A DNA stretch of 62,108 nt, filler included, from Hausera hauseri (Eukaryota), in the NCBI GenBank assembly GCA_046269625.1. It is 11 parts of 11 records of this genome, joined end to end, with 100 filler letters (N's around TTAATTAATTAA, not from the genome) between each part and the next. Parts side by side here need not be neighbours in the genome. Positions count along the whole stretch, not along the records: positions 1 to 4,656 come from JBJURY010487464.1; 10 more parts are not named here. The stretch is one strand, 5' to 3'. The position numbers were made by a program, and so were the translations under genes. Of the stretch, positions 1 through 28,562 are shown piece after piece; position 1 is the first letter of the stretch, and every line of letters begins with the position of its first letter. The notes under the pieces are model-generated. The model worked only from the letters and a program-made list of their open reading frames with translations, made no database searches and had not been told where the DNA came from.

Positions 1-539
1 ATGGCAGTAATGTCTGAATGGGCATGGGAATGGTATTTATAGTTTGTTGTTGTTGTGCAATGTACATTATTTTGATTTAGTAAAACATTTATGTGATTTT
101 TAATTTGATTAATAATAGGTTCATAGTCCACTATCCGAATACCGAGTACAACAATTTTTCCACTGATAAATACATTGACGCAAAGTGGGCGAAACGATGT
201 CAGTCTCAGTGAAGGAAACAATCCTGGTTTATACGTACATTCAGCAGCGACCATTGATAATTTGTACAGATTGATTGTTTGATGGTAGTCTAACTGAGTC
301 GTTACCGATATTGATTCGATTGTGTCAGTGGCAATTCCGAATGGTAGTAGTTTAATGTTGTCAGCTATGATTGGTTTGCAACAACCCATAATACAACACT
401 TTCCCGATTGAAATACGATGCATGTAAAATCTGGTGGACACTTGAGGACGTACTGCTTCGGCTCCCACTGATTAAAAGGTAGTGTGTTAATGTCACACTC
501 GGTAACATGGCCGCGATAGTTGATATTAGTTAATATTAT
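1..539 (-). CDS. TATA-binding-protein (TBP)-like protein, divergent, two TBP half-repeats; 3' end runs off the window and no ATG start is present (possibly mutated to ATA)
   Basis: Manual translation, stop-free from 539 to 1: IILTNINYRGHVTECDINTLPFNQWEPKQYVLKCPPDFTCIVFQSGKCCIMGCCKPIIADNIKLLPFGIATDTIESISVTTQLDYHQTINLYKLSMVAAECTYKPGLFPSLRLTSFRPLCVNVFISGKIVVLGIRIVDYEPIINQIK. IVFQSGKCCIMG and YKPGLFPSL..VNVFISGKIVVLG match the TBP motifs LIFSSGKMVCTG and YEPELFPGL..LLIFVSGKVVLTG. Confidence 0.75.
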   Translation of the reverse strand, partial: MILTNINYRGHVTECDINTLPFNQWEPKQYVLKCPPDFTCIVFQSGKCCIMGCCKPIIADNIKLLPFGIATDTIESISVTTQLDYHQTINLYKLSMVAAECTYKPGLFPSLRLTSFRPLCVNVFISGKIVVLGIRIVDYEPIINQIKNHINVLLNQNNVHCTTTTNYKYHSHAHSDITA

Positions 540-562
540 GGAAACAGTGCTTATACTAAAGC

Positions 563-570
563 TATTTATA
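563..570 (-). promoter_or_regulatory. TATA box (TATAAATA) upstream of the TBP-like ORF
   Basis: tatttata at 563-570 reads TATAAATA on the minus strand, about 25-30 nt upstream of the putative start at 539. Confidence 0.4.
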
Positions 571-634
571 TGCGTGTGATACGATTATAAACAAATCATG
601 TGGTGAGAAAAGGTTGTATTATTACTATTATTAG

Positions 635-1315
635 ATGAAGCTGCAAAATAATGCCATTTTCCAGATTGTAGGCCCCAGTGGAAGTGGCAAAACACACTTT
701 GTGTGTAAACTATTGCAGAACTACTGCGATATGTTCCATTCACCGCGGTATAATCACATATACTGGCATCAGGGTGTTGGTGATTATAGTGAATCCGGTT
801 TGACACAACGGGAATTTTGTAAACTGAAATCATTAACGGTAATTGGTAGATTTCATGAGAACTGGTCAGAGAGATTACGCAACGGTGACGTTATTGCCAT
901 TGACGATTTATTTTAGGAAGCCTCGAAAGAATCGGACTTCAACAACCTACTCACGAAGATTGCACAACACCGTGGCGTAACGGTTATTTTCATTACGCAA
1001 AACATGTTTTATCAGGGCGGCCAGCATCGAACAAGAAATCTAAACGTACACTATTTGTTGTTGTTCAAAAATCCCCCTGATCAAACTATCATTGACTATG
1101 TTTAACGACAAGAATTTCCTCACAACCGAGCCTACTTGATAGATGCATATCATGATGCTACGACCGAACCACACGGACACTTGTTCATAGACTATACACA
1201 ACAGTGTCTCGATGACATGCGTGTACGAACAGACATTTTCAATCAGAAGGGTGGTGTGTCTATAAACAAATTCGAAAATCGACGACATGATTATTATAAA
1301 AAACAAACAAAATGA
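635..1315 (+). pseudogene. A32/FtsK-HerA-like viral DNA packaging ATPase with two in-frame stops
   Basis: Walker A GPSGSGKT and Walker B IAIDDL. After the TAG at 914-916 the frame continues ...KIAQHRGVTVIFITQNMF...RTRNLNVHYLLLFKNP...DATTEPHGHLFIDY to TGA at 1313-1315. Confidence 0.9.
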
Positions 1316-1416
1316 AGAATTTCGGAAAAACAATTGTTGAAAGTAAATCTACTACCAAGCGGGTGTCCGGCGGCAAGAAACGTGTATCAAAACGAACCAC
1401 CGCTACAGTCAAGTGA
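1312..1416 (+). CDS. Small basic core-like peptide (pVII-like), 34 aa
   Basis: MKNFGKTIVESKSTTKRVSGGKKRVSKRTTATVK. K/R-rich, contains an adenain-like VSGG site, ATGA overlap with the ATPase stop. Below the ORF-track cutoff. Confidence 0.45.
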   Translation: MKNFGKTIVESKSTTKRVSGGKKRVSKRTTATVK

Positions 1417-1509
1417 TTAATCAAATATGTGCTTCAAACAACAAAAGCCGTAAAAATTGCAACGGTTATAAACAGCTACGTGTCATGGTCAATACATCCA
1501 CAAAAAAAC

Positions 1510-1836
1510 ATGCGATTCAAACGTAGTCAACCGTACTTTATTGCTTTGCTCAACACACCTACGAGACATAAGCGAAACATGCTTCGATCATTCCCACAGT
1601 TTGTAGTAGACGATTTGATGGAAATTTTATACAATACCGTTGTGGGTCACGTTGACATTGGTAGTGGAAAGCCCAATATACTAAAGTATCGAAAACGACT
1701 CATTGGCATTGCTAACGCCCGTAGTAAACGACTGAAACGAGAGGTTATGTACCATCAAGACGGCGGATTCCTTGGTGCAATTCTACCGATTGTCACATCA
1801 TTACTGGGTGGACTCATTGGTTCTGCAACAACATGA
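1510..1836 (+). CDS. Polinton/adintovirus pX-like virion protein with C-terminal amphipathic peptide
   Basis: Basic body ending QDGGFLGAILPIVTSLLGGLIGS, resembling the adenovirus pX GG-FLP..IP cleavage and membrane-active motif. Confidence 0.7.
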   Translation: MRFKRSQPYFIALLNTPTRHKRNMLRSFPQFVVDDLMEILYNTVVGHVDIGSGKPNILKYRKRLIGIANARSKRLKREVMYHQDGGFLGAILPIVTSLLGGLIGSATT

Positions 1837-1950
1837 TAGTATAAACAATGACGGTAAGTATATGATAATTCGGCAATATGGGCACATGGTTTTCATCTTT
1901 CTGTCCGAGTTTACCGAATCTTTCATTTACGTTTCATTCTAATTGTTGTA

Positions 1951-3019
1951 ATGCAAACAAAACCGATACCATCGACAGCAACAATGGGCGATGTGTGGTT
2001 TAACCCGCGTCATCCCGTCGGCTATACTGGCGTCAACAAACTGGCAAAGACTGCCAAACAAACTCGGCAACATACCCAACGTTGGCTCGGGAAACACTTA
2101 GCATACAGCATAAGCAAACCGATAAGAAGGCGGTTTCCAACTCGCGCATACCGTGCTGCCGGTGTAAATAATGTATGACAAATGGATCTGATGGAAATGA
2201 TTCCATATGCCAGCATCAGTAATGGGTATCGGTACGTTCTGACATGTGTTGATGTGTTTAGTCGTTTTGCATGTGCAATTTCTGTGAAATCTAAATCTGG
2301 TAAAGATATTGCCAACGCTGTTCAGACACTGATACAACAACAAGAACCGAAGTATTTACAAAAGGATTTGGGTAAGGAATTCTACAACGCTTACGTTGCA
2401 GCCGTCTTGAAACGGTTCGGCGTAAGCCACTACTCGGTGTTTTTCCAATACAAGGCTGCACTCGTTGAACGATTTAATCGAACATTGCGCGGTCGCCTGA
2501 ACAAATTCTTTAGGAAGCAAGTCAACAAACGCCGGATAGATGTAGTTATCGGATATTATTCATGCATACAATTATTCGACACATTATGGTATCAATGGAT
2601 TACGGCCGGTTGACGTACTCGATGATTTGAACATGCGGTTTTATCAAAACAACCGACGAGGTCGACAGACAATTAAACATCGTCCAAAATATAAAATCGG
2701 TGCTTACGTACGTATTTCGAAAATAAGTTCGATATTATTCATTAAGAATTTCAATCAGAACTGGAGCGACGAGGTTTTCCGCATTTCGGCAATCAACACA
2801 AAACAAACACCTATCATGTACGTTTTAGAGGATGAAAGCGGTGAGGAAATACGCGGTAAATTCTACGAACAGGAACTGCAGGTACTACCCGAGAAACCCG
2901 ATGTATATCGTATTCAGGAAATTCTACGTTCACGCGGTAAAGGTTCGAATAAACAATATCTCGTCAAGTGGCATGGATACAATACACCGAGTTGGATATT
3001 TGCATCGCAGATTGAGTGA
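1951..3019 (+). pseudogene. Retroviral-like DDE integrase with C-terminal chromodomain (Polinton c-integrase)
   Basis: V*QMDL, YVLTCVDVFSRF, DLGKEF, VERFNRTL, NWSDEVF, GKFYEQEL and chromodomain YLVKWHGY..SWI. TGA at 2176-2178 and a frameshift near 2540-2630. Confidence 0.92.
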
Positions 3020-4095
3020 TGAGCATTTATTTGGTACTTGATAGTAACAAATCATTATCACAACATGACGACGATGACAATGACGACAATACCGCTAAAC
3101 AGCTAACCGTGCACTTAGACCAACCGGTCGATTTACGCCACAGAGACTGGAAAGTGGCTTTGACGGAATTCGCATTTACAATTTAACCAATGACAATACG
3201 TCAGAACAGTGGTATTTACTTTATCCGACATGAAGTGTACCCTATTTTAAGTCGTTAGCGGACAATCCGACACAATAACCAATATATTATTCACAATTAT
3301 TCGCGAGAAAATTTCTCAGTTTATACTTATGTTTTAAACCATCGTATGAAACTAATGAATCAAAATCCCATGGAAATGCAGTTTAATTCTGTAGCTGTTG
3401 CTCAGGCATGGGGTTTTCAATCAGTCAATGTACACTGAAAACCTTTATGGCTAAGTGGACATGTTATAATTGGTGAAAAATTGGACCTATCATACAATTC
3501 GGAATCCGATATCATAGTAAAGTGGACTAAGTCAGAATCAGTCTTCCTATCATATATTTTACAACACGATTTACTAATGGAAACGGAACTGGAATAGTGT
3601 GAATACAAAAAGAAAACGGTTACATTAGCCGTGAAGACATGTGAAATAAACGCAGATGATCATATTTCCATTATACTACATGACAATGTTCTATATTTTG
3701 CCTTTGATGAATTATTGGCTCGGAATCTGAGTTTTTTACAACGTGAATTCTATCAAAATATTGTTGGATGATCTATTGTTGCCAAATGCAAACCACAACT
3801 CTATGGAGAATTTCACCGAATCAACATTTTAACGGACTTAACCGAATTCGTACTTGTTGGTGGAGAACGTAAACAACTGCTGGCTTCTATCTAACTGGAT
3901 TCCGACACGTACAAAACATCATTGGGTGAAATTGTTCGCGTTATTATGTTCAGACCCATGTCGTTATCATTGACTCACAGTATTGTGCACAGTATTTCCA
4001 TGTATATGCTTGATAAATTTTGGGAACGCGTTAAATTTCTGTTCGGGTCAACGACACATTTGATGTTATATTTTCGACGTCGTCAACGTCGATAA
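3019..4095 (+). pseudogene. Minor capsid (penton-like, single jelly-roll) protein 1, disrupted
   Basis: N-terminus MSIYLVLDSNKS..NTAKQLTVHLDQPVDLRHRDWKVALTEFAF and C-terminus ILTDLTEFVLVGGERKQLL...ISMYMLD..VKFLFGSTTHLMLYFRR fit the Polinton penton consensus. TGATG overlap with the integrase. Confidence 0.72.
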
Positions 4096-4131
4096 TAAAC
4101 AAACTGAGTCATCATCATCATCATCGTCATC

Positions 4132-4656
4132 ATGAGTATTTACATGGTGTTTCCAAGCAAAAGTTGTCCGACGACTCGTCCGAACAATTCCGCCAGTGAA
4201 TACGTTATAGATTGGAACAATCCTTTGGTTTTATCTGCAGGACAAGGGGAGGTGCAATGACGGAATTTAACTTTCCATACGCACCGGTGACATTAAAAGG
4301 TAGTATGAAAATAACGTACAACAAGACTATTACTGAAACCAAAACACATTCTTGTCCTCTGATACTTATTAACAATAAAATAGCAATTGGGGAATCGACC
4401 ATTTGCACGGCCTAAGCATATTACGGTTTACGCGACAAAATCGGTATTTTTATTATAGATCAAAACTTACATTTTATGACAGATTTTGAATTTACCGTTG
4501 CCTTTGAGTCCTCTGAGATGGCGCAGAAATTTGGATGAACAATACAGAGTACAAAGGTCAACATATTAAAAGTGAATGAGTGGTTGGTCCAAGATTAAGT
4601 CCCGTATATTACCAGACAACGGTGAAATTTACCTATACAACAGAAAGGGTGTCAAC
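4132..4656 (+). pseudogene. Minor capsid (penton-like) protein 2, N-terminal part
   Basis: MSIYMVFPSKSCPTTRPNNSASEYVIDWNNPLVL..EV/AMTEFNFPY (frameshifted). Paralogous to the 3019 ORF; truncated by the gap. Confidence 0.68.
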
Positions 4657-4756
4657 NNNNNNNNNNNNNNNNNNNNNNNNNNNNNNNNNNNNNNNNNNNN
4701 TTAATTAATTAANNNNNNNNNNNNNNNNNNNNNNNNNNNNNNNNNNNNNNNNNNNN
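4657..4756. other. Artificial contig-joining spacer (first of ten)
   Basis: N44-TTAATTAATTAA-N44 (stops in all six frames). The same spacer recurs at 9758, 17280, 22651, 28463, 32556, 40050, 44997, 53306 and 57397. Confidence 0.97.
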
Positions 4757-20950: not shown

Positions 20951-22366
20951 CATGTCGAAGACAAGTGTACAAACAACACGCTCCAAGGTAAACTAGATGA
21001 AGATTGTATTCTCGGACCAATTGTCAGTTCATGCGTCAAGAAGACATGTACCTCACCGGAAATACTCATAGACAACAAATGCGTACGAGTGGATGAGTTA
21101 TGTTTAACGAAGAAATGTGGTGAAAATGCCGTATGCAAAGTAGATAATAATGAATCAAGTTGTGTCTGCGATTCGGGATATTCCGGAGATGGAGAATCAT
21201 GTTACGATACCGATGAATGTTCGCCTCATTCTGTGACTTGTCCGAATAATTCCCGATGTAAAAATGTTGTTGGATCATACTACTGTGATTGCATTCCTGG
21301 ATTCGAACGACAAAACTCAGACAGTTCATCTATTCCCTGCACCGATATTGACGAATGCAAAGGGCCGAACGTTTGTGGTAACAACGCTAACCGTACCAAC
21401 ACCGCTGGATCGTTCTCATGTAATTGCAATCCCGGGTATACCGGTGATGGACAGTTTAATTGCCGTCTGGACTTTAGCTGTAATCAATATGGTGGTTGTG
21501 ATGATCACGCATCGTGCATTTTCAGCTCTCAAACAGTAACGTATAAGTGCTGATGTAACACCGGTTACTCAGGGGATGGTGTAAAGCAATGCACCAAGAT
21601 TGGTTTGTGCCAAGATACGACGCAACCGAAATGTAGTCAGAATGCAATATGTGTAGAGTCGAATGATTCATATACTTGTGTATGTCCTCAAGGTTACCAT
21701 GGTGATGGTTACAATTTTTGCTTGAATATCGATGAATGTTCTTCACCAACATTTAATAATTGTTCGAAGTTAGAGAAATGCATCAATACAAATAGTACTT
21801 ATACGTGTGTCTGTAAAGATGGTGCAGCGTTGGTCAATGGACAGTGCCAAGATGTTGACGAATGTAGTGGAACTGGCAAATCAAAATGCTCGCCATATGC
21901 TGTGTGCAACAACACCGTAGTCAGCTATTCATGTAGCTGCAAAGACGGCTACACCGGTGACGGAATCACATGCTCCGACATCGATGAATGTAAATTGGGA
22001 ATGGCAAATTGCAGCGTTAACGCTCTCTGTATAAACAAGCCGGATACGTTTTCTTGTGAATGTCAGGCTGGAACGGTGGGTAATGGTACGACTTGCACTG
22101 ACATGGACGAGTGGCAGAAGTCGAATGGAACTTACGTTAATGCACTATGTGACAAGAATGCGGAGTGTAAGAATAAAAATCCGGGATATTCGTGCACTTG
22201 CAATGATAGATATATTGGAACTGGATACACCTGCGTCAAACCCAACCCATGCAATAAACCAGCAGCTTGTCCGACAAATGAGACCTGTTATCCGGTCTAC
22301 GAAAAGAATACCGTTATCTGTGATTGCAAAGATGACAAGTGCGACTGTACATACATAAATATATAA
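20951..22366 (+). pseudogene. Tandem EGF / calcium-binding EGF repeat protein (fibrillin/nidogen/uromodulin-like), one long exon
   Basis: About ten EGF modules (DIDEC..C.N..GSY.C.C..GY.GDG..C) in one frame from a ttttataatag acceptor. One TGA at 21551-21553 and Cys losses (ANRTN, DEWQK). Confidence 0.85.
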
Positions 22367-24999: not shown

Positions 25000-27900
25000 A
25001 TGACGTCCTGGCGAAATTCCATCAAGAACGGATCCTTAAAAGATCCCGGCCCGCCTCAAAGTTTCGAAAATTACCGATATCCTGGTAACCCAATTCCCGG
25101 TCCACTTCCGGAGAGCTTTCGGTATCTCTTGCTGGTATGTAGTTTGTTTCGTAGGTGCAGTTAGGGAGGTTACACTGTAAGGTAAGGGAGGTATTGTCAT
25201 TTCTACGAAGGCGGAAGGGACAGATAACTCCGGAGGATTCTGAGCTGCTAGGAGATTCTTCTCGTGCTACTCCGAGTCTAGGAGATTTAGATGGGGTACT
25301 GTGTGAGATAGGAGAATCCGGAGCAAGAACAGTGGCGGCTCTTATTTAATTAGGGTCTACTTTAAGGCAGACTTTTCCAGCGGCGAAATGGACCATATAG
25401 TCACAAACGTAGGGTCCACAGTCATTGTAGTTACTGAGGGATTGGTGGTCTTTGTTTAGGTAAAGTCCTTTATAGGAGAGGTTAGGTATGTTGAAAACAG
25501 CTCTGAAGACGTCGACACAGAAGACTAGGAGTTCAGATCCTGCTCTTGAGTATAGTGATTGACGATAGTGATAAAGAAGGTAAAGGGATTCTGTTTTCCT
25601 ATTTATGTAGCCTAAGAGCCAGTGGCCTTCGTTCCATAAGGACATGAAGATTTGGTCAGCAGTGTTGGTTAACGCAGCATCCTCATCTGACATTTTCATG
25701 TGGGCTGTGGCGTCATAGGCGTTCGGGAAAAGTATTTTAAAGAGGGACCAGGATATATACAAGGAGTTGCATCTAAGAGTGGCCTGATAGCCCCAGTAAT
25801 CCATTTCGTCGGTGGAGAACCAAGTAGTTACATCGGGTTTTCTAAGAGCTTTTTTTGTAGAGTTGTTAGGATCCTTAGTCATGTTTTGCAGTGGTGTGTC
25901 GCATGATGATTTTACAATGTCTGAAAAGGTTTTACGAGGTAGGCAGGCAGATTCGGAAGATTTTTGTGTAGTGGCCGCTAAAGAGGAGTGTGAAGATGAG
26001 CTGCTTGCAGAAGACCTTGGCTACTTGAGGACGAGATTGTCAGGATGTCATCATCTGTGCTAGCGCCTATCCTGTTTGTCTGGTTGAAGTTAGTGGTGAC
26101 AGGGTTGTCTAATTTATAAGTATGTGCGACTAGTGTTTGTGGTGGGGCATTGATTGTGGCAATATTAAATTCTATTTTGTTGCTGTTTACTCTGGGTGTG
26201 GATATCATAATTTTATCTATGTGTAAATTCATGATTTATAAATGTTGGTTTCGGGTAGGGTATAGGTCCTATGACTGGAGTACCGACCCGAGTTTCTCCA
26301 TTATTAGATTTAGACGGTAGGGAGTTGTTTGGAGTATTATCGGGCAATTTCGGAGCTTTGAAGGATTTCAGAAGTTCACCCAGAGACGTTTCGAAAGAAG
26401 TGGTTGCATCAGATAGTAGGGTTAAGAAGTTGAGGACGCTCCGACTATCTGGAAAGTACATTATTTTGTGCTTATTTGAAGCACTGTTGTACTTCCGTAA
26501 GAACCTATTCAGGAAGTCAGCAGCCCTCAGCTTCAGCCTGTTGTTTTTAAAGTAAACTGATTTGTTTACGTAGGTGCTATTGTCCTTTTAGAAGAAGTAT
26601 CTAAGAGCTTTAGCAGTGGGTACATACGTAGAGAGTGCACTATGGGTTGAGGCGAGTGCACCATCTAGTGGCCAGGTAAAGCGCGCGTTAGGTGTGGTGA
26701 TCTGTTTAGGTGTCTCCTGTGGCATTGGTGTAGTCTTGTTTTCAATTGGCATAGGTTGAAATGTGGGTAAGGCTGCTTTGTTAGATTGCGGTTTTTCGGG
26801 GAGTAGTTCGGTCGAAGGAAGGTTATTCCTATAGATGTTGGTCTTTGATATTTTGATCTTGTTGGATAAGATGTCAAGTGATTTTAGTGGGTTGGCTGTT
26901 GTTGCATTAGAAAGTAGGGTGAGGAAGGAGAGAATTTGGCTTTTTGATTTGAAGGATGCTGAGGTATATGAGTTTGAAGTTTCCTTATATTTATTTATAA
27001 ATTCATTAGCAAATTTAATTGCTTGCTTTTTAAGATTGGTATCCTTTATCACGACCGATTGACCGACCATGGCACTCGATCCCCTCTTGAAAAAGTAGCG
27101 TAGAGCTCGAACTGAAGGAACGTATTGAAGGAGTCCCGTGTCAGGATTGACTAGGGCGTTCTCGAGAGGCCAGGTGAAGTAGGGTCTATTATCATTTTGA
27201 GCCGTAATGAAGGGTTGTTTATCTTTGGTTTGAGGCTCAGTGTTGGGGTTAATAGTGACACTGTTAATGTCTACTGGGGATTGTTCTTTTAGTGGTTTTG
27301 GTCTTTGTGGATATAGCGATTTAATTTTCAGGGATTCCCAAAGCTTATTGAACGGTTCGGGGATGCGGTCTATTAGGAGCCGTTGTACAGATTTTAGCAG
27401 GAGGAAGATTTGGTGTTTCGTTTCAAATGCAAAGTTAAGTTTTGGGGTGTCCTGACAGAAGGTTGGCATCTTATCTTTTATTGCAAAGATCCGAGAAGAG
27501 AGCTTATTCATAAGAGTCGGGGATAATTTACTTCAATCCATGTTAACGTAGTTGGTAGGTTTTTTCATAAGTAGTCTTTCTAGATCTGCTAATAAGATCG
27601 ATGCCACTGGTGGTAGCGAAACATGCCTATCATAGATGAAGTCTTCCTGATCCTCATCTATAATGTAATTCTTGCTATCTGTGTCTTGGATAGGCAAAAT
27701 CGGGTTTGTTTGAAGTTTATTACATTCATAATACGTTTTGTAAGGTTTAACACATTCAATGATAAATGTGCTGATGGTGTTGACCGAAGGGTTAGCAGAG
27801 AAGTTAGAAGTAAAGGTGGTCAGGTCAGTTAAGGGAACGTAATCCAAGGCGAGGGCTATTGTTTCTATGTATTTAACTAGGATGTATTTATTGCTTATTA

Positions 27901-28435
27901 CTCCTATTTTGAATAATCTCAACTCATTGTGTATCTGAAGTTTAGATCTTATTTTGATTACACTGGTTTTAAGGGATGCCCTTTCTGACTCTTTAAGTTT
28001 GGTAAATGGAAAGGATATCCAGGAGCACATGCTATTGTTAAGGAAAGCTAACAGTTCGGAAGTCCAGTCAAGAGCTGAGTGAAGTTGTTTATGTTGATTT
28101 TTATTTGCATTTTTTGGTGTAGCCTTGTTCATAACCTTCTCAATGTTTAGGATATCAGTTTGTGTTGCCGTGCTTATCATACGTGGTTTGGGCGTTTGGG
28201 TGAATTTAGGTAGTTTCTTGATTGGTTTGGGTCTATATCTGCGGTCGGTATGCTGGGGTTGAGGTGGAGGCTGAAGGACAATAGGTCTTTGGATTGCAGG
28301 AAGAGGGTGATAGTGTGACCAGGAGTATGGTAGTGGTAGTTCAGGGAAGTAGCCTCCACCGGACACAGGAGAGACACATTTGGTGACTTTGACGGGCCTG
28401 AATTTGGTGCGCAGATACTGAGCGTACAGAGTCAA
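25000..28435 (-). pseudogene. Large fragmented ORF with duplicated FTWPL domain and Ulp1/C48 cysteine protease; probably the 5' part of a NeSL-like non-LTR element
   Basis: 25346-25882: WFSTDEMDYW..IFMSLWNEGHWLLGYI..HQSLSNYNDCGPYVC (C48 His/Gln/Cys). Upstream ORF pieces 27533-28435, 26588-27511 and 26213-26461 are collinear. No RT core visible. Confidence 0.65.
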
Positions 28436-28562
28436 GATAAGCGATCTTATATTGATTAATTTNNNNNNNNNNNNNNNNNNNNNNNNNNNNNNNNNNNNNN
28501 NNNNNNTTAATTAATTAANNNNNNNNNNNNNNNNNNNNNNNNNNNNNNNNNNNNNNNNNNNN

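Follow-up and report, generated by a model that had tools for sequence, protein, structure and literature searches.

Poxvirus VITF-3 and the TBP of white spot syndrome virus are viral TBP-like proteins, and others are known from herpesviruses and from nucleocytoviruses, most of which encode their own RNA polymerase. The herpesvirus vTBPs of the ORF24 type direct host Pol II to non-canonical late promoters and combine TBP-like Phe residues with a polar-rich interface; ORF24 works within a multi-protein viral complex, pre-assembles with Pol II and is without the TFIIB glutamates (PMC12529657, in part). Mavericks, Polintons and adintoviruses (PMC8502044, in part) share with the elements described below pPolB, an rve integrase, an FtsK/A32 ATPase, an adenain protease, PLA2-type genes and capsid-sized genes. 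The preliminary description of the present locus placed TBP outside the standard Polinton gene set. A TBP is not wholly unreported there, as the part of Starrett 2021 (PMC8502044) that deals with non-animal datasets has a legend, that of Fig. 5 about MELD viruses, with the label 'TBP'; no other mention was found in the accessible portions of that paper and its preprint. The adintovirus accessory-gene section and the readable labels of Fig. S2 of that paper name no TBP, and the accessible portions of PMC10675990, PMC12220804 and 10.1101/2022.05.25.493380 hold nothing further on Polinton TBPs. A search of openly readable article text returned no account of a lineage-wide Maverick TBP, its reduced structure or its promoter word.

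The window analysed here, a stretch of 62,108 nucleotides from the genome assembly of Hausera hauseri, is a string of short contigs. The gaps between them are artificial linkers of the form N44-TTAATTAATTAA-N44 (44 N, 12 nt, 44 N), the first at 4657-4756 with nine more later, so the TBP-like gene is physically linked only to positions 1-4656. The gene order on this contig is TBP (minus strand), ATPase, a small basic ORF, a pX-like ORF, an rve integrase with chromodomain and two penton-like remnants. The labels 'pX-like', 'penton-like' and 'capsid-type' are tentative ones, given by position and size to ORFs without a Pfam match. The features are as follows.

3..536, minus strand: TBP-like gene of the short form (helix-less N-lobe), decayed; recognised by Pfam match, alignment to relatives and the fold of an intact relative, P0001.
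563..570, minus strand: canonical TATA box TATAAATA, 34 nt before the aligned TBP start codon; predicted, from the sequence and TBP relatives, to be the early, host-read promoter of the TBP gene.
586..592, plus strand: TATAAAC, 49 nt before the ATPase ATG (motif scan); predicted late-promoter word, 17 of 18 related ATPase genes being preceded by YATAAAC.
635..1315, plus strand: packaging ATPase of the A32/FtsK type with stops at 914 and 1103; 66% identical to the ATPase of locus L010, and its relatives match Pox_A32.
1261..1267, plus strand: TATAAAC within the 3' end of the ATPase, 51 nt before the ATG of the small basic ORF (motif scan).
1312..1416, plus strand: small Lys/Arg-rich ORF of 34 aa (ORF reading); possibly a DNA-condensing core protein, to judge from its composition only.
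1467..1473, plus strand: TATAAAC, 43 nt before the pX-like ORF (motif scan).
1510..1836, plus strand: conserved Maverick ORF with a hydrophobic C-terminal tail ('pX-like'); 48% identical to an ORF of L016, no Pfam match.
1840..1846, plus strand: TATAAAC (motif scan), 38 nt ahead of a short ORF whose ATG is at 1878 and which overlaps the start of the integrase.
1951..3019, plus strand: rve integrase with chromodomain, with a stop at 2176 and a frameshift near 2546; Pfam rve and Chromo matches, 54-58% identity to L038.
3019..4656, plus strand: two tandem penton-like ORF remnants with many stops, reaching the contig end at 4656; placed by position and size, no Pfam match.

The locus had been described as a stop-free minus frame with both TBP half-repeat signatures, and this was confirmed: the 194-codon frame has no stop between 584 and base 3, its 3' end still open where the window begins, and both quoted motifs lie inside it. 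It matches the Pfam TBP profile PF00352 at 42.5 bits (E 6e-11; cut-off 22.9), all 35 matches at E<=10 in a PDB sequence search with the frame were TBP-containing, and six intact relatives of 149-172 aa are 72-75% identical to it. The gene is intronless, as had been said, with one uninterrupted frame here and a single Met-started ORF of at least 135 aa at 57 of 70 family loci. The reported lack of an ATG in this copy was also found, with the start Met of the relatives aligning to codon 536-534 and not to 539. Nearly all other copies in four sequencing runs differ from the window copy at that codon, so the start-codon lesion is private to the window copy. Its frame overshoots the stop of its relatives and runs to the window edge, and it deviates at 4 of the 31 columns conserved in at least 90% of members, as often as just 2 of the 107 members do; the residues lost include the N-lobe Arg and the two glutamates of the stirrup. 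With the start codon missing, the stirrup glutamates gone and the neighbouring genes broken, the window copy is dead, and the value and the testable object lie in the intact family.

From the ATPase ATG at 635, the gap to the aligned TBP start measures 98 nt (95 nt if counted from 539). The gap of about 95 nt with TATA boxes on both strands is therefore present much as described, with the refinement that the boxes are of different classes: one canonical TATA word on the minus strand and one TATAAAC on the plus strand. The head-to-head arrangement with the ATPase also holds in the window, but not as a family feature, since 19 of 23 loci have the two genes in tandem with TBP leading and only 2 have them divergent; one further locus is reversed and one convergent. 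The layout in the window is a local arrangement, and a bidirectional-promoter design for the family is ruled out by the 2 divergent loci of 23. No contig piece spanning both the TBP and ATPase frames was seen among the pieces listed. The rve integrase and the A32/FtsK ATPase, both broken, share contig 1-4656 with the TBP-like gene; pPolB and the adenovirus-type protease are absent from 1-4656, where the contig ends, and are found alongside TBP in L012, L023, L033, L036, L056, L057 and L060. The ends of the element are not visible on this contig. The element at 1-4650 is very abundant, with 42,124 contigs of run X1 mapping to it and all 30 bins covered in each of 4 runs.

Other contigs of the window hold BEL/Pao, Ty3/gypsy, LINE and Tc5-type remnants, unlinked to the Maverick contig, and these suggest an animal source. 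On a separate contig, 43263-43892 (minus strand) is a remnant resembling the N-terminal part of a Maverick pPolB (28% to L012, E 1e-17). Tandem EGF repeats are present at 20951-22366 (plus strand) as two intronless ORFs split by a stop, adjoining a Pao retroelement. At 25349-28510 (minus strand), ORFs that contain an internal repeat match Ulp1/Peptidase_C48 weakly (E 0.004) and possibly belong to a DNA transposon with a SUMO protease.

Relatives of the gene were collected across databases. A profile search yielded 309 proteins among 2205 candidates; of the best 120, 107 were aligned and 13 of atypical length or coverage were excluded. A word-free search of 50%-identity representatives gave 59 matches at E<=1e-30 and, with cellular TBPs among the weaker matches, 753 at E<=1e-10. 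Of 229 candidate stretches from a metagenome scan, 76 were confirmed; they comprise 70 family loci and 6 cellular-type TBPs, the latter without Maverick neighbours. Four relatives scored 56.7-65.2 bits against PF00352. A core Maverick gene (ATPase, integrase, protease, pPolB or capsid-type) was found at 36 of the 70 family loci; 30 had recurrent accessory genes only, and 4 were short contigs (1.0-1.6 kb) with neither. Among family loci of at least 4 kb, 18 of 20 contained a core Maverick gene. The names ATPase, integrase, protease, pPolB and PLA2 come from Pfam matches of selected representatives. The capsid candidates, which have no Pfam match, are conserved ORFs of about 410 aa and of 340-510 aa that sit where capsid genes would be expected.

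The family is under purifying selection, with a median dN/dS of 0.17 (48 of 61 pairs estimable) and two near-identical pairs near 1. Co-divergence of TBP and ATPase was significant over 17 loci (rho 0.63); within the 11 short-form loci it was not (rho 0.29, p 0.12). The gene belongs to Maverick/Polinton elements, and the earlier proposal of an element-encoded TBP is borne out by profile match, fold, linkage to Maverick genes and purifying selection. Small conserved ORFs (C9/C2, C12, C14, C15) adjoin the TBP gene, and no single neighbour gene is common to all subgroups. Besides TBP, C2H2 fingers and KilA-N were the only known transcription-factor families among 118 ORFs scanned. No TFIIB gene was found in these ORFs, nearly all of which come from family loci that are possibly partial elements, or by tblastn, and no RNA polymerase gene was seen in family loci. 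Scans of viral contigs in which TBP, ATPase, capsid-type, integrase and pPolB sequences served as queries yielded no confirmed locus, and a tblastn search of phage records gave no match.

In a tree with ten canonical-type rows, the family forms one branch with a support of 99 (SH-aLRT only). A second tree gave a family branch at 99/95 with one mis-trimmed cellular row (P0293, branch 5.87) inside it and three more cellular rows trimmed to one repeat. The trees contain neither TRF2 nor a named giant-virus TBP, and long-branch attraction is likely. The phylogeny proposed earlier sets the family branch apart from cellular TBPs, among them mammalian TBPL2.

Maverick-type contigs were also seen inside assemblies filed as bacteria (L077-L081, L090, L093), where they are probably host contamination. 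Of five ATPase-picked contigs from prokaryote assemblies, one (L077) also carries a family TBP. At L092:3778-5042, on the 22.9-kb contig G004:C86 that also holds L081, a different TBP of 189 aa (44 bits) overlaps a TFIIB homologue of 252 aa (PF00382, 27.2 bits; cut-off 23.6). This contig is Polinton-like, with ATPase, integrase, protease and pPolB- and capsid-like genes, and is without YATAAAC before its virion genes.

Intact relatives are predicted to fold as the two-lobed TBP saddle. The saddle fold anticipated earlier was modelled for P0001 (72% identical to the window frame), not for the window copy itself, with a pLDDT of 95.9. An atlas search with P0001 returned TBP clusters only, its best Foldseek E was 1.5e-8, and its top five VIA matches were TBP chains at Z 10.7-12.9 (best match Z 12.9, rmsd 2.7 over 146 residues), the next, unrelated, being at Z 6.6. 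Two forms can be told apart, each on its own branch. The long form (L056-L064, L069, L077) has 165-170 aa and lies beside PLA2 genes; the model of L060 (pLDDT 93.9) has all four helices. The short form (L001-L055) has 144-160 aa and has lost the N-lobe helices, so that the N-lobe of the P0001 model consists of strands only and helices of at least 4 residues occur just at 85-91 and 133-157. The loops that replace the N-lobe helices have conserved hydrophobic residues and a pLDDT mostly of 96-98. From the sequences and models, the two forms would represent a stepwise reduction inside the lineage.

Residues were mapped by alignment to plant TBP with the numbering of PMC10005294 and PMC1636458 (both in part). 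The stirrup glutamates of TBP contact TFIIB (PMC10005294), and I194, V203 and L205 are positions that change the specificity of yeast TBP (PMC1636458). The loci and A3 members were gathered via shared words, which inflates invariance in those words in the following counts: among 107 members, three intercalating Phe never vary, and 98% have Pro in place of the first; the two stirrup glutamates are 96% and 100% conserved; the equivalents of I194, V203 and L205 are Arg (99%), Cys (100%) and Asn (100%); and those of the N-lobe residues V122 and T124 are Arg (99%) and Met (100%). The first central Asn of TBP is kept. About nine DNA-facing positions are replaced, mostly by conserved polar residues, the offset to yeast TBP numbering and the choice of further positions that face DNA being our assumptions. 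Across 27 long-form sequences, 19 of them from the word-free search, invariance persists for the Arg, Met and Asn, for two Phe and, of the two stirrup Glu, for the second alone.

An unbiased 7-mer count on 205 dereplicated upstream regions, in which the window sequence was not used, brought out ATAAACA (61 observed against 5.4 expected), TATAAAC (54 against 4.3) and CATAAAC (31 against 2.1). Within 100 nt upstream of the gene, YATAAAC was present in 80 of 95 genes of nine late-type families, against 3.6 expected from dinucleotide shuffles and 0 antisense, the word being found and counted on the same loci. By family, the counts were 17/18 for the ATPase (0.7 expected), 11/14 pX-like, 9/12 penton-like, 5/6 C20, 9/9 capsid-type, 4/5 protease, 7/8 PLA2, 10/12 integrase and 8/11 C4. 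The word preceded 1/52 TBP genes, 0/6 C9, 1/7 C17, 0/4 C14, 0/6 C15, 3/20 C2, 2/7 C12, 1/3 pPolB and 3/4 C18. Canonical TATA was upstream of 22/52 TBP genes (6.1 expected), 4/6 C9, 5/7 C17 and 4/4 C18. The word classes are not clean, as C18 and C4 genes carry both, and 30 of the 52 TBP genes are without canonical TATA within 100 nt.

Forty of 100 YATAAAC sites lie 30-39 nt before the ATG, where starts were taken as the first Met and some are thus misplaced. At 34 sites, in two reading frames, the word is kept within coding sequence that lies upstream. Of 98 sites, 92 have a pyrimidine at position 1 and 32 have C there; the C:T ratio at this position is 23:18 in long-form against 9:42 in short-form elements, a contrast given no weight since the sites share descent. 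Divergent elements (pPolB 37-40% identical) retain the C at position 7. In the window, all 4 plus-strand TATAAAC sites lie 38-51 nt before an ATG; the number itself is within the shuffle range (mean 1.5, maximum 5), and only the placement is informative. L077, with its family TBP, carries the word, and AATAAAC precedes its ATPase. In the TBP-less L078-L080 and L090, which include an 11.8-kb pPolB-to-protease core, YATAAAC is absent before the corresponding genes. These controls are four ATPase- or capsid-picked partial contigs from two assemblies, L090 sharing an assembly with L079, and their GC content is 51-59% (TBP-bearing loci, 32-44%); being few, incomplete and GC-rich, they test only weakly whether gene and motif occur together.

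Other TATA-like words, for example TATAAGAC, precede some late-type genes in TBP-less Maverick-type contigs. C17 (L033:1296-1865) and C9 with C2 (L012:1502-2135) stand behind canonical TATA and an initiator-like TCAKT; C9 and C2 look like two exons of one gene. The atlas look-alikes of C17, at low recognition, are DUF5871 (15%), DUF2738 (10-13%) and Pox_I3 (12%), which we take to be ssDNA-binding families. As a lead only, the genes behind canonical TATA fit an early replication class.

The C(-25) AdMLP variant of PDB entry 1qn3 presumably reads TATAAAC, and a 1999 crystallography paper on TATA variants reportedly contains a Hoogsteen result. Wild-type TBP was crystallised on this variant, according to the title of 1qn3. 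Host use of TATATACA is about 7% in tobacco, <7% in Drosophila and about 50% in HeLa, that of TATAAACG is 27%, and C at TATA position 7 or 1 weakens host use (PMC10005294, in part). The two lobes of TBP divide the reading of the box, with the 5' half falling to the C-lobe and the 3' half to the N-lobe, and a TBP Pro is said to exclude all but T at position 1 (PMC1636458, in part). This T-selecting Pro is kept in 90% of members, although 32 of 98 sites begin with C.

The reading we favour, and consider rather probable, is that in intact elements the element TBP is a one-protein late-gene switch that recruits host TFIIB and Pol II at YATAAAC. Host TFIID would transcribe the TBP gene and the probable replication genes early, from canonical TATA. 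The element TBP would then bind YATAAAC before the packaging, virion and integrase genes and bring in host TFIIB and RNA polymerase II. TFIIA, TAF1, Mot1 and Brf1 contact the TBP helix that is lost here, and loss of the N-lobe helix may let the element TBP escape them. In the window, the gap would then contain two promoters, an early one directed at the TBP gene and a late one directed at the ATPase operon. We infer that YATAAAC is a promoter read by the element TBP, that timing is early or late from the type of gene, and that the element TBP recruits TFIIB. The late-gene switch, already suggested in the preliminary description, is supported, though indirectly, by the two promoter classes and the retained TFIIB stirrup. 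At position 7, and often at position 1, the element word differs from the host consensus in ways that lower host use (PMC10005294), and the protein has changed most in the lobe and on the face that would meet these positions. A cascade of this kind is the simplest reading. Against the late-gene switch stand the ability of host TBP to bind the C(-25) variant (1qn3 title), the kept T-selecting Pro, the mixed word classes, the few, incomplete and GC-rich TBP-less controls and the non-significant co-divergence within the short form (p 0.12).

The same observations were weighed under other explanations. Host TBP/TFIID might read YATAAAC as a weak TATA once the element has amplified, with the element TBP serving as a decoy or repressor that ties up host TFIIB via the stirrup or occupies canonical TATA to silence host or early genes. 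That the stirrup is the best-kept surface, that host TBP can bind the C(-25) variant (PDB 1qn3 title) and that the family is short of one intercalating Phe out of four, a loss also seen in TRF2, a factor without TATA binding (PMC10005294, in part), would all fit a decoy. A pure TFIIB sponge, however, needs no invariant new residues across the DNA-facing saddle, and the C at position 7 is held in divergent elements, even inside coding sequence, though it lowers host use; a decoy is judged unlikely.

Less probable again is that the element TBP binds YATAAAC as a subunit of a viral initiation complex with element-encoded partners, in the manner of ORF24. Loss of two helices could expose a partner surface, the small conserved ORFs C9/C2, C12, C14 and C15 neighbour the TBP gene, and another Polinton-like contig encodes a TBP beside TFIIB. 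Yet none of these neighbours is common to all subgroups, the replacement loops are confidently modelled with conserved hydrophobic residues, and C2H2 fingers and KilA-N are the only other known transcription-factor families in the 118 ORFs scanned.

We regard as very improbable that YATAAAC is a 3'-end signal for polyadenylation or termination, or a by-product of TAA stop codons, with the TBP doing something unrelated, for example binding termini during replication or packaging. The word does resemble AATAAA, and in elements this compact it frequently extends over the end of the preceding gene, but a pyrimidine at position 1 in 92 of 98 sites, its absence before 51 of 52 TBP genes, many directly after a same-strand gene, and its place in the window before an ATPase whose upstream neighbour is on the opposite strand all speak against such a signal. 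A retrocopy or pseudogene of host TBP/TRF lying beside a Maverick by chance, which the damaged, ATG-less window copy might suggest, is scarcely credible and is refuted by linkage and selection, given 19-28% identity to cellular TBPs, a family branch apart from them with mammalian TBPL2 included, Maverick genes at 18 of 20 long loci and repeat coverage shared with the element (4 runs, all 30 bins of 1-4650).

The late-gene switch bears on whether animal Mavericks/Polintons behave as viruses and how their genes are transcribed. In its fullest form, a broad animal Maverick lineage would run a virus-like early/late programme through one re-engineered TBP of 150 residues, with an altered saddle for a private YATAAAC box of which host TBP makes little use, a stripped N-lobe that evades host TBP regulators and a stirrup that recruits TFIIB/Pol II; this combined claim is tentative, its chances being put a little short of even. 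If true, no smaller orthogonal TBP-promoter pair would be known, and the programme would show directly that these 'transposons' time their virion production. A conserved element TBP with its promoter word predicts transcript starts and early versus late genes. As an experiment in TBP design, the family would indicate that N-lobe helices are dispensable, that the stirrup is required and that the saddle can be changed to accept C at position 7, and if orthogonal to host TBP the protein would be a compact Pol II switch.

The family represents a real viral TBP mimic in small integrating elements, with a candidate private promoter. The beta-saddle of two repeats that it shares with cellular and archaeal TBPs (5fur_A, 7o4i_O, 1mp9_B) superimposes on theirs at Z 12.1-12.9, with an rmsd of 2.7-2.9 over 146-147 residues; also common to both are three of the four intercalating Phe, the acidic TFIIB stirrup and the first central Asn. 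Unlike those TBPs, it has about 150 aa, is without N-lobe helices in the short form, has Pro for the first Phe, and is encoded by an intronless, element-borne gene. TRF2/TBPL1 shares the TBP fold and lost intercalating Phe and serves a separate promoter set; unlike the family, it is a chromosomal host gene and does not bind TATA (PMC10005294, in part). Nucleocytovirus TBPs (the putative TBP of Heterosigma akashiwo virus, the asfarvirus B263R type) have the same fold at 8-20% identity, and viral structure matches at E<=0.001 numbered 24. A search of longer proteins (7999 scored) gave two long family-like matches and otherwise mostly cellular TBPs. The beta/gamma-herpesvirus vTBPs (KSHV ORF24, EBV BcRF1, HCMV UL87) are alike as viral TBP mimics with TBP-like Phe and a polar-rich interface, and BcRF1 is a weak fold match (E 3e-3). 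YATAAAC before virion, packaging and integrase genes would be the counterpart of their non-canonical TATA-like late-gene word if those genes are late, as their type suggests. Unlike ORF24, members of the family have 145-170 aa and keep the TFIIB glutamates.
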